Notes: generated from the letters alone by a model not told the origin. A stretch of 64,000 nt of DNA from Deltaproteobacteria bacterium (GCA_046583355.1 JAYGCM010000057.1:32006-96005), one strand, 5' to 3'; positions 12,490 through 22,948 are shown, counted from the first letter of the stretch. Translations and numbers: made by a program.

Positions 12490-13316
12490 GTCCCCTCCCG
12501 GAAGCCACCCGGCACGCCCTCCTCGAGTGCGCCAAAGGCGACCGAGCCGCCCGCGCCTCGGTCAGCACGAAAATTATCGAACTCGTCGAGGCGGGTGAGG
12601 CGGCCGCCGTCGATGCGGAACTCGCCACGGCCCTGGTCGCCCTCTTCGAGCAACCCGGCCGCACCCAGCAGCGCCACCTCGCCGACGCCCTCCAGCCCTT
12701 GGCCCGGCAAAATACGGCCGTATACGAGGCCCTGAAAGACGCGCTTGCCGCAAGCAATGATTCGCTGCGCTGGGGTGCTGCCTTCACCCTCGGCCACGCC
12801 TTTGGCCCCTCCCCAGCGATCGCAAGGACCATCCTGCAGGTACTCGGCCAGGAAGACGGCGACAGCCGCTGGGCGGCCGCCGAACTGGCCTGCGGGCTGG
12901 CGCGCCTCTCGGAGGATTTCACAAACGAGTTGCGCGCTGCCACGCGCGCCCAGACCGCGACCCTACGACGCATGGCCCTCTATTGCCTGCGCGATCTGAA
13001 GGTCCCGGATTTATGCGCACTCGCCCGCGAGGGCCTGAACGACCCCACTTCACACGGCCGCATGGCCGCGCTCTCTGCGCTGGTGGCTGCGGCCCCCGAT
13101 GCGATGGCGAACGAGGCCCTGGTTGGGCCCATCGGCCGGTTGATCGAGGACGACCCCGATCCCGGTGTGCGCCGCGCGGCCGCTGCCACCCTCGGGCGCC
13201 TCGGCGCCCCGGCGGCCCGCCGGATTCTCGAGCAAGCCTCTGCTTCCGCCGACCCGAGCCTGGCCCGCGCCGCAGCGGGCGCGCTGCGCAAGCTACCCTC
13301 GCTGCCGCCGCACTGA
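12486..13316 (+). CDS. HEAT/PBS-lyase repeat protein
   Basis: Repeated roughly 30-aa Ala/Leu-rich helical units with recurring RxAAAxALG patterns. The start overlaps the upstream stop (ATGA). Confidence 0.6.
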   Translation: MSPLPEATRHALLECAKGDRAARASVSTKIIELVEAGEAAAVDAELATALVALFEQPGRTQQRHLADALQPLARQNTAVYEALKDALAASNDSLRWGAAFTLGHAFGPSPAIARTILQVLGQEDGDSRWAAAELACGLARLSEDFTNELRAATRAQTATLRRMALYCLRDLKVPDLCALAREGLNDPTSHGRMAALSALVAAAPDAMANEALVGPIGRLIEDDPDPGVRRAAAATLGRLGAPAARRILEQASASADPSLARAAAGALRKLPSLPPH

Positions 13317-13352
13317 CTAGAGGCCCGGCCGAAAAGCAGGCCGGGCCTCTAG
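13317..13352. terminator. perfect 14-bp-stem palindrome (CTAGAGGCCCGGCC, 8-nt loop, GGCCGGGCCTCTAG) directly after the HEAT gene stop; possible terminator or repeat element
   Basis: The inverted repeat is seen directly in the sequence. No T-tract follows it. The arms share sequence with the promoter-like motif reported at 37146. Confidence 0.4.
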
Positions 13353-13389
13353 CGCAACTTGCCTGGGCTCTGGTAACCATGGAGGCATC

Positions 13390-14424
13390 ATGGAAACCAC
13401 GGAGACCTTGCCGACCGCGCCAACCGAGACCAACGCGGGCCGATTCCACGCCATCGCCGACCGGGTACTGGAAGGTACCGCTCCGACACGAGAGGAAGCA
13501 CACGCCATCCTGGGTGCGCCGGAGCCCGAGTTCGAAGAGCTTCTGGCCGCCGCCCTGCGCATCCGTGAGCGCCGTTGGGGCCGCGGCGTGAAGCTCTGCA
13601 TGCTGCAGAACGCACGCTCGGGACTCTGCCCCGAAGATTGCAGCTATTGCTCGCAATCCAAGGTCTCCAGCGCCGAGATCGACACCTACACGCTGCTCGC
13701 GCGCGGCCGGCTCATCGAGGGTGCCAAACAAGCGCAGCTGCGTGGTGCGCGGCGCTATTGCATGGTGACCAGCGGGCGCGGACCCAGCGACCGCGATATT
13801 GACGAATTCTGCGCCACCACCCGCGCGATCAAAAGCGAATACCCTGACCTGGAGATCTGCGTCTCCCTCGGCCTGATGGACGACGCAAAAGCCGTCAAGC
13901 TCAAGGAGTCCGGGGTCGGCTGGATCAACCACAACCTGAATACCAGCGAGCGCCACCACGACGCGATCTGCAGCACACATACCTACGCCGACCGCGTGGC
14001 AACCGTGCAGGCGGCCCAACGCGCGGGGATGAACACCTGCTGCGGCGGCATCATCGGCATGGGCGAGAACGACGAAGATATCGTCCAGCTCGGCTTCGCG
14101 TTGCGCGAGCTCAAGGTGGACTCTCTGCCGGTGAATTTTCTCCACGCCATCGACGGCACGCCGCTGGAAGGTGAGCCGAAGGTCAGCGCGGGACGCGCCT
14201 TGCGCGCACTCTGCCTGATGCGTTTTCTCAACCCCGATGCAGATATTCGCGCGGCCGGTGGCAGCGAACGCGCGCTCGGCGAGGACGAGCATCTGGCACT
14301 CAATGCCGCCAACTCAATTTTTGTTGCCGGCTACCTCACGACCTCCGGGCGCACTGCCGAAGCGGCGCATCGCATGATCGAAGAGCGCGGCTTCCACGTC
14401 GACGGAACGGAACTGGGCCTCTAG
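13390..14424 (+). CDS. bioB: biotin synthase
   Basis: Radical SAM motif CPEDCSYCSQS, the BioB NHNLNTS motif, the auxiliary-cluster Cys residues, and a C-terminal IRAAGGSE. GGAGG lies 5 nt before the ATG. Confidence 0.85.
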   Translation: METTETLPTAPTETNAGRFHAIADRVLEGTAPTREEAHAILGAPEPEFEELLAAALRIRERRWGRGVKLCMLQNARSGLCPEDCSYCSQSKVSSAEIDTYTLLARGRLIEGAKQAQLRGARRYCMVTSGRGPSDRDIDEFCATTRAIKSEYPDLEICVSLGLMDDAKAVKLKESGVGWINHNLNTSERHHDAICSTHTYADRVATVQAAQRAGMNTCCGGIIGMGENDEDIVQLGFALRELKVDSLPVNFLHAIDGTPLEGEPKVSAGRALRALCLMRFLNPDADIRAAGGSERALGEDEHLALNAANSIFVAGYLTTSGRTAEAAHRMIEERGFHVDGTELGL

Positions 14425-14435
14425 AGATCCGACAG

Positions 14436-15373
14436 TCAATCCCGGAGATGCCAGATCCACACCTGGTTGCGGAAACGCCCGCCCTGCAATGAGACCTCCA
14501 GGAAGGCCTCGCCGCGACCACCGAGGCGGGCGCCGACCGGGAAATGCCAATGATCGACGCCGCGCGCCACCACCTGGCCGCCGATCCGCCAGACCAGTGC
14601 GCGGCGGTCGCGGCGCTGCGCACTGCCAAGGTGGACGCGGAAGAAGCGCCCCTGCCCGTCGCCGACGCGAAGCATTGCGTCACGTGGCGAGGCCGCGGCA
14701 ATACCGGCATGCGGGCTCGGCTGGCCGCGTGCGGCGAAATACAGCGGCGCGGGCAGAAGCGGCGCGGGGCTCGGTCCGGGAATGCCGGCAACGGCAAAAA
14801 GAAGCCCCGCCAGCAGCCCCGCCGCAACCGAGGGGAGCAGCTCTGCCGCGACCGGCTTGCCCGGGAGCGGCGTCTCCGGAAGAGCCGAAATCGACCGGCT
14901 CTCCCGTGATCCGCGATAGATCGCTCGCGAGCCGAGCCACGGCGCGCCAGCGAGAGGCCGAACTCGAAGATGCGGGACGGCCCCAAGGGGTCGGCCGAGC
15001 GCATGCGGCTGCCCAGCCCCGAGCCGGATACCAGGTCGGTCGCCAGCACCGTCCCCAGCGTTGCATCCTGCAGGCGCGCGCGAAATCCAGCGACCGCCGG
15101 ATGACGAATGCGCTCCAGAAGCTCCCCCTCCAAGACAAAAGCCGCGCACGCACGGGTATCGTGCCTTTGTGCAGCGCCGAGAAAACGAAGCGCACAGGGC
15201 TCATTGCGAAGCTCATCAACCGCCGACGCGAGCCGTTGCGTCGCACCCGCCTGGAGCAGGCGCACGATGCGGAACCGACCGCCGACTCGCCGACCGACAA
15301 GCTCGTCCTTGCGAGCAGAATATTCGACGCTTGGACATCGACCGAAAACGCCGCAACCTGAGCATTTTCCCAA
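14436..15373 (-). pseudogene. Ser/Thr protein kinase-like gene remnant (degenerate catalytic motifs, internally frameshifted)
   Basis: From about 15370 to 14900, frame A reads GGRFRIVRLLQAGATQR...ALRFL...RIRHPAVAGF...LGTVLATDLVSG...SIADHGRAGRF. This is collinear with the kinase N-lobe through the catalytic loop, but the Gly-loop, the VAIK Lys and the HRD Asp are all replaced, and it then runs into Arg-rich nonsense. A different frame ending at 14436 encodes a Pro-rich linker, a TM helix and an 85-aa tail with good GC3. Confidence 0.4.
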
Positions 15374-15394
15374 CTACCCTGGACGCCGGCAAAT

Positions 15395-16915
15395 ATGGTA
15401 GCGTTGCCCGTCTTCGCAGGGTTGCGGAGCAGCCTTGTCGTGGCACAACTTCTCATTCCCATCCGACCCCATAAAAGGGTCCGCCTGCCGGTGACATTAG
15501 CGACCATCCTGGTGCCGCTGGTGGGCCTTTTCATCATCCTGAACGTGGCTCCCGTGCGCAGTCCGCTGACCGAAGCCGAAGCACCCTTGGCGCTGGCCGC
15601 GCGCTACCCCGACCGTATGCTGCTGGATGCGAGCACCTTGCCGCCCACAACGGCTGCCAGCGTAGCGTTAGCCAGCATCGGGCCGAAGCTGATCGGCACG
15701 AGCGAGTTCCATCTGCGTATTCTGGGCCTGCTTGCTGGACTCGGCGCCCTCGCGCTGATGATCCGGCTCGGCGAGCGACTCTTCTCGACGCGGGTCGGCA
15801 TCGTTGCCGCCTTGTTGCTTGTCGCGACGCCGGCGGGCCGCGCCCTGCTCGGCACGCAGCTCTCGGCCGAGCCTTTCTATCTGATCGCCACCTTCGCCGC
15901 GCTCGGAGCGGCGCGCAGCCTCGCAGTCTCGCGCTCCTCGGGCCTATGGGCCGGTATCGCCATCGGGGTTGCCGTAGCCCTGGCCGGCCCGCGTGCGCTC
16001 TGGCTTGTCGGCGTCGTGGGTTTCTGGCTCTGGCGCCTGCGCGGCCTCAATCTCCGTAGCGCCCTGACCGTATGCTTCGTGGTCGCGCTCTCCGCCGGCA
16101 CTACGGCCCTTCTCAGTGGGGCACTTCTGGTCGTGCTCCGGCCCGGACCTTTGCCGCCCCTGCTGCTGCAACCCTTTGCCGACGGCATCGCCTGGAACCC
16201 CGCACTCTTCCTGCTCGGCTTGCTCTTCTTCGCTCCCGTCGTACCCCTGGCGGTACTCGGCACCCTGCACCGCCCGGCGCTCTGGCGCCTGCGCGGTTCA
16301 CCTCGTTTCCTCGCCATCTGGCTATCCTTTGCTCTTGTCGAATTCATCATCTCCGGTCATGGCGCGAACCTCTATATCGGCCTCAGCTTTGGCGTCGCCG
16401 TCCCTGCGGTCTGGGCAATTGAGAACGCACCGCGGCGCACGGCGATTTTCGCGCTCACGGCCTCAGCCGTGCTCGCCATGGCCTTGATCACCGTGGCTCC
16501 CGAGAACGCCGAGCTCCGCTCGCGCGAGCGCTGGGCGGCACGCGAAACCAGCCGCTTCGTGCGCCGCACGGTACCCGAGGGAGCCACCCTTCTCGCCACC
16601 GACAGGCTGCGCGGCCGGATCGCGTATTACGCACGGCGCACGACGCGTCCGAGCCACGACGGCATGGATAGCGCCGCCGTGCATTGGGAAATCATCCCGC
16701 GCCATATCCTCACCACGGCCGGAGCCGACCTGGCCCTGCCGCGCAACCTCCAGGTCGAAGGAGAAGATGCCCGTATCCTTGCCGAGATCGGCCCCTATGT
16801 ACTGAGCCGCGTTGGGACACCTCCGCCGACTCCTGCGCCGGCCACCGATCCCCAGGCGCGGACTGCCTTGATCGGGAACCGACATTCTGGCAACGCGGTA
16901 GCTGTCTATGAGTGA
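15395..16915 (+). CDS. GT-C type membrane glycosyltransferase (ArnT/PMT family, GT39/GT83-like)
   Basis: Roughly 12-TM polytopic protein of 506 aa with ArnT-like loop organisation. The family call comes from overall architecture only. Confidence 0.5.
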   Translation: MVALPVFAGLRSSLVVAQLLIPIRPHKRVRLPVTLATILVPLVGLFIILNVAPVRSPLTEAEAPLALAARYPDRMLLDASTLPPTTAASVALASIGPKLIGTSEFHLRILGLLAGLGALALMIRLGERLFSTRVGIVAALLLVATPAGRALLGTQLSAEPFYLIATFAALGAARSLAVSRSSGLWAGIAIGVAVALAGPRALWLVGVVGFWLWRLRGLNLRSALTVCFVVALSAGTTALLSGALLVVLRPGPLPPLLLQPFADGIAWNPALFLLGLLFFAPVVPLAVLGTLHRPALWRLRGSPRFLAIWLSFALVEFIISGHGANLYIGLSFGVAVPAVWAIENAPRRTAIFALTASAVLAMALITVAPENAELRSRERWAARETSRFVRRTVPEGATLLATDRLRGRIAYYARRTTRPSHDGMDSAAVHWEIIPRHILTTAGADLALPRNLQVEGEDARILAEIGPYVLSRVGTPPPTPAPATDPQARTALIGNRHSGNAVAVYE

Positions 16916-17471
16916 AATCAGCAGCGAAACTCCGAAGGAAGAAACAACTCCTGAGGAGCCCCAGGTCCGCTGGTGGATCGATACCGGCAAGACCGGCGGA
17001 CGTGGCCGGCGGGGAGCGGCGCCTGAGATTCCGGCCGAACGTGTCCTCGGGGAGTCGATCTTCGCGGTTGGCGCCGGCTTCGACGAAGACCGCGCTCGTA
17101 CCCAGCTGACGGGTTCCAATATGAACCTGATCCGCGAAGCCAACCCGACGCCGGGAGAGTGGGCCTACCTCGCGCCCGTCGAGTCGACTTCGACGCCAGA
17201 ACAAATCGAAAAAACCAAGAAATTCCTTCACCTTCCCCAATGGGCGCTAGGCGTCTTGGTGGATTCCGGCATCTCGATCCGCGCGATCGCCACCGGCGAC
17301 CCACCCGGCGCACAAATCGTCGAACTGCGGCTGGGCAAGGACTCTTCTTTCGATGCCTGGCATGAAGGCGAATGGGTGCGCGAGCAGGTCTTTCGCGACC
17401 GCCACCGTGCACTCCGCGAGGGCTCTGGATTCTTGGAGCGTAATCTCGCTCGGCGCGATCGCCTCGGGTGA
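16908..17471 (+). CDS. hypothetical protein (187 aa)
   Basis: ORF with good GC3. Its start overlaps the upstream stop (ATGAGTGA). I recognise no domain. Confidence 0.5.
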   Translation: MSEISSETPKEETTPEEPQVRWWIDTGKTGGRGRRGAAPEIPAERVLGESIFAVGAGFDEDRARTQLTGSNMNLIREANPTPGEWAYLAPVESTSTPEQIEKTKKFLHLPQWALGVLVDSGISIRAIATGDPPGAQIVELRLGKDSSFDAWHEGEWVREQVFRDRHRALREGSGFLERNLARRDRLG

Positions 17472-17502
17472 TTTCCCGCCGGCCATGGAGTATCCCTGCT
17501 GA

Positions 17503-17850
17503 ATGGGAGACGCGCCGGACAAAGAAGACCTCTACGATGAGGGCCTCGACCTTGCCTTCGACGGCAAATACCACGAGGCGATTGGCAAATACCGCGAGGC
17601 CGTCGCACTCGACGCCACCTACGCCGATGCGATTCTCGGCATCGCGATGGCGCATGCCGAACTCGACGAACTCGACGAGGCAATCGAGGCCGCCAAGCAA
17701 CTCTGCGCGATCGACCCCGACGATATCCTCGCCCATACCAGCCTCTCGACGTTCTATATGCGCAAGGAAATGGTCCCCGAGGCCGAGGCCGAATCGGCCA
17801 AGGCGCGTATGCTCGATTGGAAGCGTCAACTCAAGGAAGGCAACTCATAA
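17503..17850 (+). CDS. tetratricopeptide-repeat protein (115 aa)
   Basis: Two to three TPR-like helical pairs (AIGKYREAVALDATYADAILGIAMAH...). Confidence 0.55.
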   Translation: MGDAPDKEDLYDEGLDLAFDGKYHEAIGKYREAVALDATYADAILGIAMAHAELDELDEAIEAAKQLCAIDPDDILAHTSLSTFYMRKEMVPEAEAESAKARMLDWKRQLKEGNS

Positions 17851-18125
17851 TGAGTGACGGAGAGAGGCCAGATGCCTATTATGTCGGGCGCCTGCTCGGC
17901 AAGCTCAAACTCCTCATCGCCACCGACGACGAAGTTCCGATGGATACCAAACTCGACACCCAGGCGATGATCAAGGAGTTCGCGCGCCACCTCTCCGCCC
18001 CGCTAGACGAGCAGGATGTGCCGACCTTGCAAGCACAGCATAACCACCTGCTTGTCGAGCTTGAGGACTTCCCCAACTGCGAGTCGCTGCTGCTTGCGCT
18101 GCCGAACTTCGCGCCCAACCTCTAG
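17850..18125 (+). CDS. hypothetical protein (91 aa), coupled to the TPR gene by a TAATG overlap
   Basis: An in-frame ATG at 17850 overlaps the TAA of the TPR gene. The sequence is MSDGERPDAYYVGRLLGKLKLL... Confidence 0.45.
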   Translation: MSDGERPDAYYVGRLLGKLKLLIATDDEVPMDTKLDTQAMIKEFARHLSAPLDEQDVPTLQAQHNHLLVELEDFPNCESLLLALPNFAPNL

Positions 18126-18142
18126 ACGCCGCCGATTGCGCC

Positions 18143-19243
18143 ATGACGGCTCGCGAACTCAGCCAGCGCGTGCGCGCTGCCATCGGAGAGACAGCGGCAG
18201 ACCCGCAGGCCCCCTTTGCCTTCGACGCACTCGCCGAGGAGATTTTCGCTTTCCAATTTTCTCATTGCGAAATCTATCGTCGTTTTTGTGAGCGACGAGG
18301 TATCCGGCCGGGAGATACCACGACCTGGAAGGAAATCCCGGCGCTGCCCACCAGCGCCTTCAAGGCGCTGGACCTCGCCTGTGGCGATGCCGAGCAGGTT
18401 TTCCTCACCAGCGGGACGACGCAAGGCGAGGAACGGCGGGGCCGCCACCTGATGCCCGATGTCGCACTCTACCGCGAGTCCGCGGTGGCACATTTCCGCC
18501 GCATGGTGCTGCCCGATGGAGCCCGGCCACGCATCGTCGGCCTTCTCGCCGGGCCGGCCGAGACACCCCAATCCTCGCTTATGCAAATGGTCGAATGGCT
18601 CCGCATTGAACTCGGTGACGACGCCCCCGAATACCTGGTCGATGCCGCGGGTTTCAATGCCGCGGCCGCCACTTCTCGCCTGCGCATACTTGCCGCCGAG
18701 GCGCGTCCTCTGTGCCTGATCGGCGTGCGCACGGTCTTTACCGCGCTGCTGGACCACCTCCGCGCCGCCGGAGAAGAGATCGAGTTTCCGGCCGATACCC
18801 GTATCGTCGAGACCGGCGGACCCAAAGGCGGCCGCACCCTCTCCGACAACGGGCTGCGCCGCTCGGCCTGGGACCTGCTCGGCGTACCCGGATATTATTG
18901 CCTCGGCGAATACGGCATGACCGAGCTCTCTTCCCAATATTACGACGATGTCCTGGAGCGCCGCTTTGCCGGCTCCAACGCAAAACGGCGCAAGCTCGCA
19001 CCGCCGTGGCTGCGCTCGGTGGCCGTCGACCCCGAAACCCTCGCCCCGCTACCCGATGGCGAAAAAGGCCTGCTACGACACGTCGACCTCGCCAACGCGC
19101 TCTCCGTGCTGGCCGTACAAACCGAAGACCTCGGCATCGTCACGGGCCCCTACCTCGAATTACACGGCCGCCAACCGGGGGCCGAGCCACGCGGTTGCGC
19201 GCTGGCCCTGGCGCACCTGCTCGAAGGCGAGACACGCGGTTGA
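18143..19243 (+). CDS. LuxE-family acyl-protein synthetase (fatty acid adenylating/transferring enzyme)
   Basis: VFLTSGTTQGEERRGRHL matches the LuxE FxTSGTTG nucleotide-binding motif, in a 366-aa protein. Confidence 0.75.
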   Translation: MTARELSQRVRAAIGETAADPQAPFAFDALAEEIFAFQFSHCEIYRRFCERRGIRPGDTTTWKEIPALPTSAFKALDLACGDAEQVFLTSGTTQGEERRGRHLMPDVALYRESAVAHFRRMVLPDGARPRIVGLLAGPAETPQSSLMQMVEWLRIELGDDAPEYLVDAAGFNAAAATSRLRILAAEARPLCLIGVRTVFTALLDHLRAAGEEIEFPADTRIVETGGPKGGRTLSDNGLRRSAWDLLGVPGYYCLGEYGMTELSSQYYDDVLERRFAGSNAKRRKLAPPWLRSVAVDPETLAPLPDGEKGLLRHVDLANALSVLAVQTEDLGIVTGPYLELHGRQPGAEPRGCALALAHLLEGETRG

Positions 19244-21669
19244 GCGCCGATGAATTCACGCGCTCGCTTGCCGAACTCATCCAGGCTGGACGTGCGTTAC
19301 GCGAGCAACCCCGCAGCGCCCGCATCCGCCGGCTGGGCACGATCCTCGAGGGCTTGCTCGCACCCCAAAGCGACCTCATAGGCTGGGCAAGCGAAATCGC
19401 CGAAAGCACCGGCTACGCCACCCCAATGGTCGAAGTCTGCCTGCGACGAAGCCTTGCGGCCTGGAACGACCCGGCTCTGACGGAGAATATCGCCACGGCC
19501 GAGAGCGCGCCGGGTGAGCATGCGGCGCCCGACCTCATCGCCGCCATTCTCGCGCAGAATACACCGGGGCTGGCGATCGGACCGATCGTAACCGCGCTGG
19601 CTCTGGGCTCCGCTGTGGTGGTGAAAAGTGCGCGCGGCGAGCCGCATTTCGCCGAGCGTTTCGTCGCGGCAATTCGCGCCAAGGACCCGATTCTCGGAGC
19701 GGCCTGTGCAGCGTGGGTCTGGCAGGGCGGCGACCCGGATTTCGAAAACCCGCTGGCCGAGGCCGCCGACCGCATCCTCGTCTACGGCGACAGGGCGACG
19801 ATCGCCTCCTGGCGCGAGCGCGCCGGCGAGCGCGTCGTCGCACACGGGCCGCGCATCAGTCTCGCCTTGGTCGGGGACGGACTCGATGCCGCGGGCCTCA
19901 CAGCATTGGCCGAGGATATCGCCTTTCTCGACGGACGCGGCTGCCTCTCGCCGCAGGCGATCCTGACAACACCGGAGGTCGACGCCACGCGGCTCGGCGC
20001 CGGACTCGCCCGCGAATTGGAACTCATTGCCCGACAATGGCCGCGGCGCCGCTTGGCAGGCAGCGCGGCCGCAGGCTTCCGCCAGGCTGTCGCCAGCGCC
20101 GAGATGGCGCTGGCCGCCGGCGCTGCCGGGGCTCTCTTCGGCGGGCACGCGGCGGGCTTCGCGATCGAAGTCCGCGCCGAGGCCCGAACCCCGGCGCGGG
20201 AATCCGCCTCGGCCCTGGAGCCGTCTCCGTTGGATCGCTTCATCCGTATCTATCCGCTGGCGGGTGCCGAAGCCCTGGCCGCCGCGCTCCGGCCACTGCG
20301 CGAGAATCTCGAATGCATCGGCGTAGGCGGTGCGATCGGCGCGCCCTTCGAGGCGACGCTGCGCCGCGCCGGCGTGCCACGAATCTGCCAAATCGGTTCG
20401 ATGCAAGACCCGCCGGCCGCCTGGCAGCCGGCCGGCCCCTTCCTGCACACGCGCCACGATGAGCGGCCCGGCGCGCCCGGCGACCTGCCCGAGCGCTTCC
20501 GCCGCGTCGTCGCACAGACCTCGGAGGCACCGCGCGCGCTTGAGGTCGTCCGTGCGCGCGGCGCCCATATCTTCACCAGCGACGGCCAGGCCCACCTCGA
20601 CCTGCTGGCAGGAATCGGCGTCGCATCGGTCGGCCACGCGCACCCGCGGGTCGCCGCAGCCGTCGCGCGCCAGGCCCGCCTCTATACCCACGTGATGGTC
20701 TACGGCGAAGACGCGCTGGCACCGCAGGTCGAACTGGCCGAGCGCCTCACGGCACGCCTGCCCGCGCATCTCGAAGCCGTCTACTTCACCAATAGCGGCA
20801 CCGAAGCGATCGAAGGTGCGCTCAAGCTGGTGCGCAAGGCCACCGGACGCACGCGAGTGCTCTCCTTTGAAGGTGCCTTCCACGGCGACACCACCGGCTC
20901 GGTCGCGCTTGGCGGCAACCCGCTCTACCGCGAGCCCTTCCGCCCGCTGATCGAAGGCATCGAGCAGATCCCCTGGAATGATGTCGACGCGCTGGCGCGC
21001 ATCGACGAGACCACCGCTGCCGTCTTTGCCGAACCCGTGCAGGCTGAGGCCGGCGTGCGCCTTCCTGCGGCGGATTTCCTGCCGCGCCTACGCGCGCGCT
21101 GCACCGAGGTCGGCGCCCTGCTGGTCTTCGATGAGGTCGTGACCGCCTTCGGCCGTACCGGCCGCTTCTGGGGTTTCGAGCATTGGCCCGAGGCGGCCCC
21201 CGACGTATTGGTGCTGGCAAAATCTCTCGGCGGCGGGCTGCCGCTGGGAGCCTTTATCGCCTCCCACCAACTACTCGCATCCCTCTCAAGCGATCCGCCG
21301 CTGGGCCATGTGACAACCTTCGGCGGCAACCCGGTCTGCTGCGCCGCAGCACTTGCCGCCTTGGACGTTCTTGAAGAAGAAGCATTGGTCGAGCGCAGCG
21401 CGCGTGTCGGTGCCCTCTTCCTTGAAGAGCTGCGCGCGCTGGTCGGCCACGGCGGCCTGGTAGAGGTCCGCGGCCTCGGCATGCTGCTTGGGCTGGAGTT
21501 CGCAACGCCACAGGCGTGCCTGGCGTTTGCCGAAGCCTGCCGCGCCCGCCACCTGCTGCTCGGCTGGACCCTGCACGAAGACCGCGTGATCCGGCTCGCG
21601 CCGCCTCTGATCCTCAGCGACCCCGAACGCAGACACGCCGTGACCGAAATCCGCGCCGCCCTCGCCTGA
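19240..21669 (+). CDS. fusion protein: LuxC-family acyl-CoA/acyl-protein reductase (N-terminal) and class-III PLP aminotransferase (C-terminal)
   Basis: The N-terminal half carries LuxC signatures ILAQNTPGLAIGPIVTALALG, VAHGPRISLALV and FLDGRGCLSPQAIL (active-site Cys). The C-terminal half carries aminotransferase-III signatures including LVFDEVVTAFGRTGRFWGFEHW and LAKSLGGGLPLGA (PLP Lys). There is no stop codon between the two halves. The probable start is a TTG at 19240 overlapping the luxE-like TGA. Confidence 0.75.
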   Translation: MSADEFTRSLAELIQAGRALREQPRSARIRRLGTILEGLLAPQSDLIGWASEIAESTGYATPMVEVCLRRSLAAWNDPALTENIATAESAPGEHAAPDLIAAILAQNTPGLAIGPIVTALALGSAVVVKSARGEPHFAERFVAAIRAKDPILGAACAAWVWQGGDPDFENPLAEAADRILVYGDRATIASWRERAGERVVAHGPRISLALVGDGLDAAGLTALAEDIAFLDGRGCLSPQAILTTPEVDATRLGAGLARELELIARQWPRRRLAGSAAAGFRQAVASAEMALAAGAAGALFGGHAAGFAIEVRAEARTPARESASALEPSPLDRFIRIYPLAGAEALAAALRPLRENLECIGVGGAIGAPFEATLRRAGVPRICQIGSMQDPPAAWQPAGPFLHTRHDERPGAPGDLPERFRRVVAQTSEAPRALEVVRARGAHIFTSDGQAHLDLLAGIGVASVGHAHPRVAAAVARQARLYTHVMVYGEDALAPQVELAERLTARLPAHLEAVYFTNSGTEAIEGALKLVRKATGRTRVLSFEGAFHGDTTGSVALGGNPLYREPFRPLIEGIEQIPWNDVDALARIDETTAAVFAEPVQAEAGVRLPAADFLPRLRARCTEVGALLVFDEVVTAFGRTGRFWGFEHWPEAAPDVLVLAKSLGGGLPLGAFIASHQLLASLSSDPPLGHVTTFGGNPVCCAAALAALDVLEEEALVERSARVGALFLEELRALVGHGGLVEVRGLGMLLGLEFATPQACLAFAEACRARHLLLGWTLHEDRVIRLAPPLILSDPERRHAVTEIRAALA

Positions 21670-21843
21670 GCCCGGTGGGGACGGAGCCCAGTCCTGTGGG
21701 GACGTGTGTTACCTATACTCCTCAGCTGCTGGTGCAGGAGTTGTTGGCCGCGCCGTCGTCGAGTTCGTCGCAGATCAGCTCGAGCCCCATGGTACCGTTC
21801 AGAGTACGGCAGGCCCGGATCGGCGGCGGATTCGCACCCAGCC

Positions 21844-22948
<1,105 letters not shown>

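Follow-up and report, generated by a model that had tools for sequence, protein, structure and literature searches.

What lies between bioB and a glycosyltransferase gene in an uncultured bacterium, where kinase-like residues and a membrane-protein tail are written in different reading frames of one strand? The DNA analysed here, called the window throughout, is a 64-kb stretch of a metagenome-assembled genome (MAG) labelled Deltaproteobacteria bacterium, and the element in question is its minus-strand region 14436-15373. The region is flanked by bioB (13390-14424, plus strand) on one side and by a GT-C/PMT_2 (GT39-like) glycosyltransferase gene (15395-16915, plus strand) on the other. No gene-like open reading frame (ORF) lies between the two, and three minus-strand frames are open there. 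An earlier note on this DNA had likewise judged no single ORF in the interval to be credible, and all the pieces that it described were found in place.

We conclude, with a probability of about 0.88, that 14436-15373 is a pseudogene, in which a lineage-specific gene coding for a pseudokinase-like protein with a single membrane pass is preserved as a copy in decay. An intact orthologue occupies the same position in related bacteria, and the frame of the window copy is disrupted twice, not by an assembly artefact. The parent protein would have begun with a cytoplasmic pseudokinase domain derived from Hanks-type kinases (N-lobe, alphaD/alphaE and a vestigial catalytic core) and continued through a helical linker and one transmembrane (TM) helix into an extracytoplasmic domain of ~100 residues; its gene is intact, at 426-444+ codons, in marine relatives. 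Two frame-breaking lesions are seen in the window copy, namely a net +1 frameshift near 14945, common to the window and a 98.6 %-identical strain, and a 56-nt deletion between 9-nt repeats that is found in the window only. Since this deletion shifts the frame a second time, the TM helix and the tail can no longer be translated together with the N-terminal part, and we would expect no functional full-length product from this copy. A sister lineage has lost the gene almost entirely. The earlier note had proposed the pseudogene of a receptor kinase or pseudokinase from which a part had been deleted, and this is borne out by a collinear and syntenic intact homologue (P0011), by the two frame disruptions and by the apparent absence of ~150 residues.

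Kinase likeness and the intact orthologues

Frame A, the minus-strand ORF 14336..15373, reads like a protein at first ('...GGRFRIVRLLQAGATQRLASAVDELRNEPCALRFL...IRHPAVAG...DLVSGSGLGSRM...') and turns Arg-rich later, as the earlier note had remarked. Frame B, which ends with a stop at 14436 ('ISALPETPLPGKPVAAELLPSVAAGLLAGLLFAVAGIPG...WIWHLRD'), comprises a Pro-rich stretch, a strongly hydrophobic segment of 19-20 residues and a tail, and frame C (minus-strand 14680..15537) is mostly rich in Trp, Arg and Cys. No intact ORF joins frames A and B. A codon model was trained on 24 long ORFs of the GC-rich window (GC at codon positions 1/2/3 of 0.72/0.50/0.76); near 14890-14920 its preference for frame B and the antisense partner gives way to one for frame A and the antisense partner, the model being blind to the difference between a frame and the antisense frame with the same second codon position.

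The likeness of frame A to protein kinases was assessed with a serine/threonine kinase (STK) test profile of four sequences, PknB and three kinases from unrelated loci, which had not been chosen with the sequence under study. All six-frame ORFs in the window with a length of 40 aa or more were compared with this profile; residues 32-138 of frame A are the sole match (E 0.0024), the next having an E of 5.7. An exhaustive HMMER search of frame A against 1.84e9 representative proteins returned 293 matches at E<=1e-3, with 30-40 % identity to library kinases. By these two results the kinase likeness claimed for one minus frame exceeds chance. Ten of the 293 matches were scanned with Pfam: eight proteins and one fragment carry PF00069 starting at the match start, whereas the tenth, the best match P0011, belongs to no Pfam family. 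A similarity search had been proposed in the earlier note as the check on its kinase claim, and the Pkinase proteins checked here were matched at their N-lobes. Among PDB sequences, phmmer with frame A as the query found PknA at E 0.019; kinases aligned from the domain start made up 22 of its 27 matches. From these sequence comparisons we regard the homology of frame A to a kinase N-lobe as established.

Other searches returned little. The only matches in NCBIfam were of PknB type and far below threshold. Neither frame A nor a 186-aa relative described below (P0002) found anything in word-indexed protein searches, and the orthologue surfaced only in the exhaustive HMMER search. Searches by tblastn with two unrelated planctomycete kinases missed the region, single sequences being weak for such a test. 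The PknA N-lobe did match the region by tblastn, but this result is not relied on because PknA had been chosen via frame A, which makes the comparison circular.

In the frame A segment (14945..15373, minus strand) a putative TTG start at 15373 and a short lead at the N-terminus are followed by a degenerate kinase N-lobe. Its kinase-like part, ~15298-14960, reaches helix alphaD and the start of alphaE and contains a Gly-loop LQAGATQR, a beta3 motif ALRFL with Lys replaced by Arg, a retained alphaC Glu (FVLEGE) and a hinge DLVSGSGL.

P0011, a protein of 426 aa, is the best library match to frame A (E 6.5e-14, 46 % identity). When it is compared with the window by tblastn, residues 1-102 match 15265..14960 in frame A (45 % identity, E 2e-19) and residues 303-426 match 14840..14439 in frame B (39 % identity, E 8e-16), the latter alignment covering 'AGLLAGL.FA.AGIPG', 'ALVWR..G.VVARGVD.W' and the C-terminal 'WHL.D'. 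As both halves are collinear with one protein, they are pieces of one ancestral gene. Frame B accordingly contains what the earlier note had described for an offset frame ending at 14436, a Pro-rich linker, one TM helix and a gene-like tail: the best 19-residue hydropathy window is 2.1, the codon score of the tail equals that of real genes, and P0011 matches it. The Pro-rich juxtamembrane linker 'ISALPETPLPGKPVAAE' (14841..14891, minus strand) is collinear with 'RLAKRTGPQPGSTGGWRG' of P0011. The single TM helix 'LLPSVAAGLLAGLLFAVAGI' (14781..14840, minus strand), predicted from hydropathy and conservation, has a core 'AGLLAGL(L/V)FA(V/L)AGIP' that is conserved in both known intact orthologues. 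The extracytoplasmic tail of ~113 residues with its stop at 14438-14436 (14436..14780, minus strand) keeps 'ALVWR(I/L).G.VVARGVD.W' and a C-terminus '(I/L)WHL.D' in common with them.

P0011 is encoded on the TARA Oceans contigs L086 and L087, where it is divergent (head-to-head) from the adjoining PMT_2/GT-C gene. The block downstream consists of a 225-aa protein, a TPR protein, a 93-aa protein and LuxE, as in the relatives of the window, and on L086 bioB and a HEAT-repeat gene follow on the other side, with two extra genes, HupE_UreJ_2 and DUF3604, in between. Neighbouring genes of the window and L086 are 80 % (bioB), 74 % (187-aa protein) and 56 % (GT-C) identical. P0161, of 444 aa, is a further intact homologue; it shares 56 % identity with P0011 and likewise has the GT-C and DUF3604 genes as neighbours. 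Because P0011 stands head-to-head with the same GT-C gene in the marine relatives, it is the intact positional orthologue, and judged by gene order and alignment P0011 and P0161 are both positional orthologues of the window remnant.

The interval between bioB and the GT-C gene shrinks stepwise, from ~5.7 kb (L086 5811-11542) to 0.97 kb (window 14425-15394) and to 163 nt in the sister lineage (contigs L083-85). The TARA interval holds HupE_UreJ_2, DUF3604 (1012 aa) and the intact pseudokinase-like gene, and that of the window only the remnant; a tblastn search of the whole 64 kb for DUF3604 and HupE found neither. The block downstream of the GT-C gene (window ~16908-22000; L083 8700-11589; L086 1-4321) is conserved in all relatives. 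It encodes an unannotated ~187-225-aa protein, a TPR protein of small size and a ~91-aa protein, followed by LuxE-like and LuxC/aminotransferase-like genes of the acyl-protein synthetase/reductase type. In a bioB-based scan of genome contigs the best match was only 67 % identical and the downstream synteny was absent, and two metagenome scans for related loci, with the GT-C protein and with a HEAT alignment, gave no matches.

Gene callers begin both orthologues at a GTG within strand beta1/beta2 ('IV-RTLRRGG'). Their true starts lie further 5', since an in-frame 'G(K/R)..S...GV(D/E)T..SRDELAGRRIAGRFRIV' is conserved upstream of the called starts (L086 5794-6003; L088 464-610; window 15265-15373), as is 'DEL.GRR..GRFRIVR'. 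Candidate true starts are GTG 464 in L088 and TTG 15373 in the window; on L086 no canonical start was found outside the GT-C gene. The start of the window's GT-C gene itself has been called in three ways, at ATG 15395 (506 aa), at GTG 15440 (NCBI MFP6664414.1, 491 aa) and at 15491 (Logan, 474 aa), of which 15395 is favoured by a 508-aa call in L083 and by conservation up to the ATG.

The nature of the parent protein can be read from the intact orthologues. Searched against PDB sequences, a profile of the family matches PknE (E 8.8e-5) and PknI (E 9e-5) in an alignment that spans the N-lobe to the DFG position. Both orthologues have Arg for the beta3 Lys, a degenerate Gly-loop and a retained alphaC Glu. 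The profile alignment pairs 'llgsGgmgrVy' with LLQAGATQRLA and 'vAlKvl' with CALRFL, and P0011 and P0161 share these substitutions. At the HRD position, aligned to 'THRD' of PknE, Phe replaces Asp ('GVTF'); the orthologue sequence 'GVTFAAEDVCIR' is aligned against 'ATHRDVKPENILV', and 'LRLR/LRLQ' against 'VDFG', so that the DFG position reads RLQ or RLR. That position has been removed from the window copy, in which only 'PVDF' is left at the HRD position, and the tripeptide 'DFG' in the window sits at the HRD and not at the DFG position.

These alignments refine the earlier account in several respects. It had taken every catalytic residue to be substituted, and for the Gly-loop (LQAGATQR) and the beta3 Lys (ALRFL) this is correct; intact orthologues have the same N-lobe substitutions, which are therefore ancestral pseudokinase traits and not products of decay. 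Its 'ADHGRAGRF' in place of HRDLKPxN arose from reading frame A past the frameshift, the true residues there being 'TGEPVDF' in frame C. The C-lobe with DFG and APE is indeed absent from the window, mostly as a trait of the family: of the catalytic loop and the DFG position the orthologues have no more than vestiges left. APE and alphaF-alphaI were not detected in the window copy or in either orthologue, the profile alignments stopping at alphaE or at the DFG position, and the stretch past the kinase-like alignment is low-complexity or helical. As the motifs are degraded in the intact genes P0011 and P0161, the parent can be assigned to the membrane-anchored pseudokinases; of the two parents that had been considered, a receptor kinase or a pseudokinase, it was already the latter.

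Tentatively, and at a little under even odds, we suggest that P0011 and P0161 define a very small 'minimal' family of membrane-anchored pseudokinases that is apparently dispensable, with the window as a snapshot of its loss. In such a protein a kinase N-lobe with a vestigial catalytic core may be followed by a helical linker of some length, a single TM helix and, in the periplasm, a beta-rich domain of ~100 residues. The family may be invisible to Pfam and NCBIfam and conserved head-to-head with the GT-C gene in an uncultured 'Deltaproteobacteria' lineage. Its dispensability is suggested by independent loss in at least two sublineages, and the intact parent family appears to be undescribed.

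Lesions in the window copy and the loss in a sister lineage

The second lesion is a deletion of 56 nt. The NCBI protein of 79 aa annotated in this region falls into one cluster with P0002, an ORF of 186 aa. The ENA contig that carries P0002 (L082, 758 bp) comes from a different sample and shares 98.6 % identity with window 15110..14409, apart from a single gap of 56 nt on the window side. L082 has two copies of GATTTCGGC (219-227 and 275-283), 56 nt apart, enclosing 47 nt that code for 'KVVGELEDLKAEMEKQ'; the window keeps one copy (14884..14892, minus strand), having lost one repeat and the spacer, 56 nt in all, and at this scar frame C gives way to frame B. The frame C of L082 ('ARLASDLSRITGEPVDFG') continues through 'KVVGELEDLKAEMEKQ' into frame B as the single ORF of P0002. 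The loss is most simply explained by slipped-strand mispairing between the direct repeats.

The first lesion takes frame A into frame C at a site that alignment to the orthologues places approximately at 14935..14950 (minus strand), and it is present in both the window and L082. The orthologues are uninterrupted here ('FAFVDTVADALETAAEHAGHGVTF'), whereas the window needs frame A for 'FEFGLSLA' and then frame C for 'RLASDLSRITGEPVDF', which aligns ungapped to 'EALEDASGKNGLPVTF'/'DALETAAEHAGHGVTF' of the orthologues. Upstream of the site, frame C spells nonsense rich in Trp, Arg and Cys. The frame C segment '(AVA)RLASDLSRITGEPVDFG' (14884..14943, minus strand; 'RLASDLSRITGEPVDFG' itself is 14934-14884) is the true protein continuation after frame A and represents the end of alphaE and the catalytic-loop position, its 'PVDF' aligning with 'GVTF'/'PVTF' of the orthologues and having Phe in place of the HRD Asp. 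Since L082 is identical to the window across the site, this frameshift is older than the divergence of the two strains and does not stem from faulty assembly. The single -1 shift near 14905 that had been proposed to join the two halves thus gives way to two changes, A to C near 14945 and C to B at 14892-14884. We had also considered 'LASDLSRITGEPV' as the C-terminal STK motif 'DL.R.L.GEP', with a C-lobe deletion at the A/C junction, and rejected this because the orthologue alignment puts it at the alphaE/HRD position.

As a third lesion, alignment to the ~45 %-identical orthologues suggests that ~150 residues were lost after 'PVDF', comprising the vestigial catalytic loop, the DFG strand and most of the helical linker.

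Loss has gone furthest in a sister lineage represented by three contigs, L083, L084 and L085 (bioB 94 %, ~82 % DNA identity), which are without 14482-15310 (blastn breakpoints 14481/15311). In place of these 829 nt they have 23 unrelated nt, and they retain only the first ~21 codons of frame A and the last ~15 codons of the tail. On L083 (7018-7180, minus strand) the deletion fused these codons in frame as '...GRCLGVEHSGRLAAPCRDPARYRKQVWIWHLRD', followed by a stop, and no start codon remains. The last 45 nt of the L083 remnant are ~90 % conserved, better than the surrounding spacer.

Inactivation of the window copy was probably recent, in view of its gene-like codon scores and the synonymous third-position changes that separate it from L082. 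The two differ by 10 substitutions, and six of these fall on third codon positions of frames A and B and are synonymous (P = 0.08); for the tail (frame B) four of six are synonymous.

Weighing the alternatives

This GC-rich genome yields many long spurious ORFs, for example one of 457 aa antisense to bioB (12919-14292, minus strand), and several ORFs of >350 aa overlap real genes in the window, so that ORF length alone is no guide. Two plus-strand ORFs, 14544-14909 and 14489-15361, have codon scores equal to those of the minus frames; they were rejected because the L082 substitutions sit on minus-frame third positions and the homology is on the minus strand. A large non-coding RNA was ruled out by Rfam scans (whole window at the gathering threshold, the region at E<=1) and tRNA scans, none of which found an RNA gene, and an inserted mobile element by repeat, inverted-repeat, promoter and terminator scans that found no element ends and no further copies in the window.

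Several observations weigh against a decayed pseudokinase gene and should be set out together. The Pfam Pkinase model (PF00069) matches no frame or trimmed piece at E<=10, and the orthologue P0011 is also without a Pkinase match in a Pfam scan. AlphaFold2 models of frame A from the single sequence and of P0011 from a 4-row alignment reached a mean pLDDT (predicted local distance difference test) of 36 and 42.5, respectively, too low for a fold search. The nucleotide responsible for the A to C frameshift cannot be placed, as there are 82 nt between the flanking Phe codons in comparison with 72 in the orthologues. Only three intact or partial relatives are present in the collections (P0011, P0161 and L082), and with so few the direction of the ~150-residue difference rests on taking the kinase-like collinear sequence to be ancestral. 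With synonymous changes in excess, selection could still be acting on the halves to some degree. Finally, Logan contig L001, which is from a second assembler and is 100 % identical to the window over 8661 bp, possibly derives from the same reads as the MAG and so tests the assembler and not the library.

The point about selection bears on a rival that we consider unlikely, in which the locus is a split gene: one ORF of ~165-170 aa would supply a pseudokinase N-lobe only, a second from GTG 14940 (186 aa, L082-type) would cooperate with it, and the window would have lost the second alone. On L082 a TGA within the 56-nt segment ends frame A, and a gene caller begins the second ORF at a GTG, giving two overlapping ORFs, and the A to C arrangement is common to two strains, as this reading would have it. 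The two ORFs, however, would share ~68 nt, read in different frames, there is no sequence of Shine-Dalgarno type ahead of GTG 14940, and the orthologues have one continuous protein. An N-lobe cut within alphaE would be unlikely to fold alone. The six synonymous changes in 10 do not amount to a significant excess and would also be expected after a recent frameshift, and the window strain has in any case lost the frame of the second ORF.

The breaks might instead be errors of sequencing or assembly in an organism that carries an intact, short membrane-anchored pseudokinase gene, as the earlier note had allowed in offering a sequencing-induced frameshift as its alternative. Indel errors are possible in MAG assemblies, and the possible common reads of the window and L001 leave some room for them. 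Against this, two assemblers gave identical sequence over 8.7 kb; the A to C shift recurs in the ENA assembly of another sample, at a site that is not a homopolymer; and the other lesion is no homopolymer slip but a deletion flanked by repeats, which at 9 nt are far below assembler k-mer length and cannot collapse 56 nt. The same gene was moreover lost independently in the sister lineage, in three assemblies. We regard such errors as very improbable. Slimmer still are the chances that the public gene calls are right and that a 258-aa ORF (14680-15456, frame C) and a 79-aa ORF (14436-14675) are real, unrelated genes whose kinase likeness is coincidental. A gene caller did predict both on L001, and NCBI lists the 79-aa ORF as hypothetical protein VCC00_09450. 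The frame of the 258-aa ORF is nevertheless Trp/Arg/Cys-rich and off the orthologue's frame except for ~20 codons, its 90 %-identity cluster contains only itself, the 79-aa ORF is the last 79 codons of the orthologue tail without the TM helix, and the kinase similarity is statistically solid. NCBI numbering implies a further protein, VCC00_09455, here; none of ten candidate ORFs matched it.

Both public gene calls are pieces of a single dead gene, and one pseudogene feature should replace them. The kinase-like residues at this locus are not evidence for an active or recently active kinase; what the locus does indicate is a small pseudokinase family, linked to a GT-C glycosyltransferase and apparently undescribed so far. 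Three stages of gene loss (intact, frameshifted with partial deletion, and gone) are sampled in closely related uncultured bacteria, and one lesion, the deletion between 9-nt direct repeats, has a clear mechanism. It is an ordinary case of gene decay, with no bearing on any long-standing open question.

Comparison with known kinases and pseudokinases

The parent protein resembles PknA, PknB, PknE and PknI of M. tuberculosis in architecture: a cytoplasmic kinase-type domain is joined through a juxtamembrane linker to a single TM helix, with an extracytoplasmic domain beyond it. Its N-lobe is collinear with those of Hanks-type, PknB-like kinases and retains the alphaC Glu and the 'RHP' turn. Unlike Hanks-type kinases, the family has Arg at beta3, a single Gly left in the Gly-loop, Phe at the HRD Asp and RLQ/RLR at DFG; it also falls below the Pfam PF00069 and NCBIfam cut-offs and has no detectable APE or alphaF-alphaI. 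The window copy differs further from these kinases through its two frameshifts and its shortening.

Bacterial pseudokinase families described so far include ActPs1-3, GLW, CP1, DYD and DLHK, with EssB/YukC and MviN as TM pseudokinases (PMC12599244). Loss of all three catalytic motifs together with the Gly-loop has been called common in prokaryotes (PMC12599244), and the parent family is like these pseudokinases in that the three motifs and the Gly-loop are all degraded. A TM segment C-terminal to the pseudokinase domain occurs in the GLW, ActPs2 and ActPs3 families (PMC12599244); the TM helix at 14840-14781, kept in the orthologues, has the same position relative to the kinase-like domain, and a proteobacterial-type source is a further point in common with GLW. 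The GLW family has a GLW motif instead of HRD and Leu or Trp instead of the beta3 Lys (PMC12599244), whereas the parent family has VTF/VDF at the HRD position and Arg at beta3 and by that description is not GLW. The comparison with the ActPs, GLW and other families was made against their descriptions. Unlike them, the locus is without COG3899, helicase, MviN or type VII secretion system (T7SS) context, and the kinase-like part of the parent is much shorter, stopping near the DFG position.

With ordinary pseudogenes the remnant has in common an intact positional orthologue, a frame broken twice, a deletion between short direct repeats and the loss of the locus in a related lineage. Nothing essential separates it from them; it is unusual only in that the intact, the decaying and the vanished stage have all been sampled.

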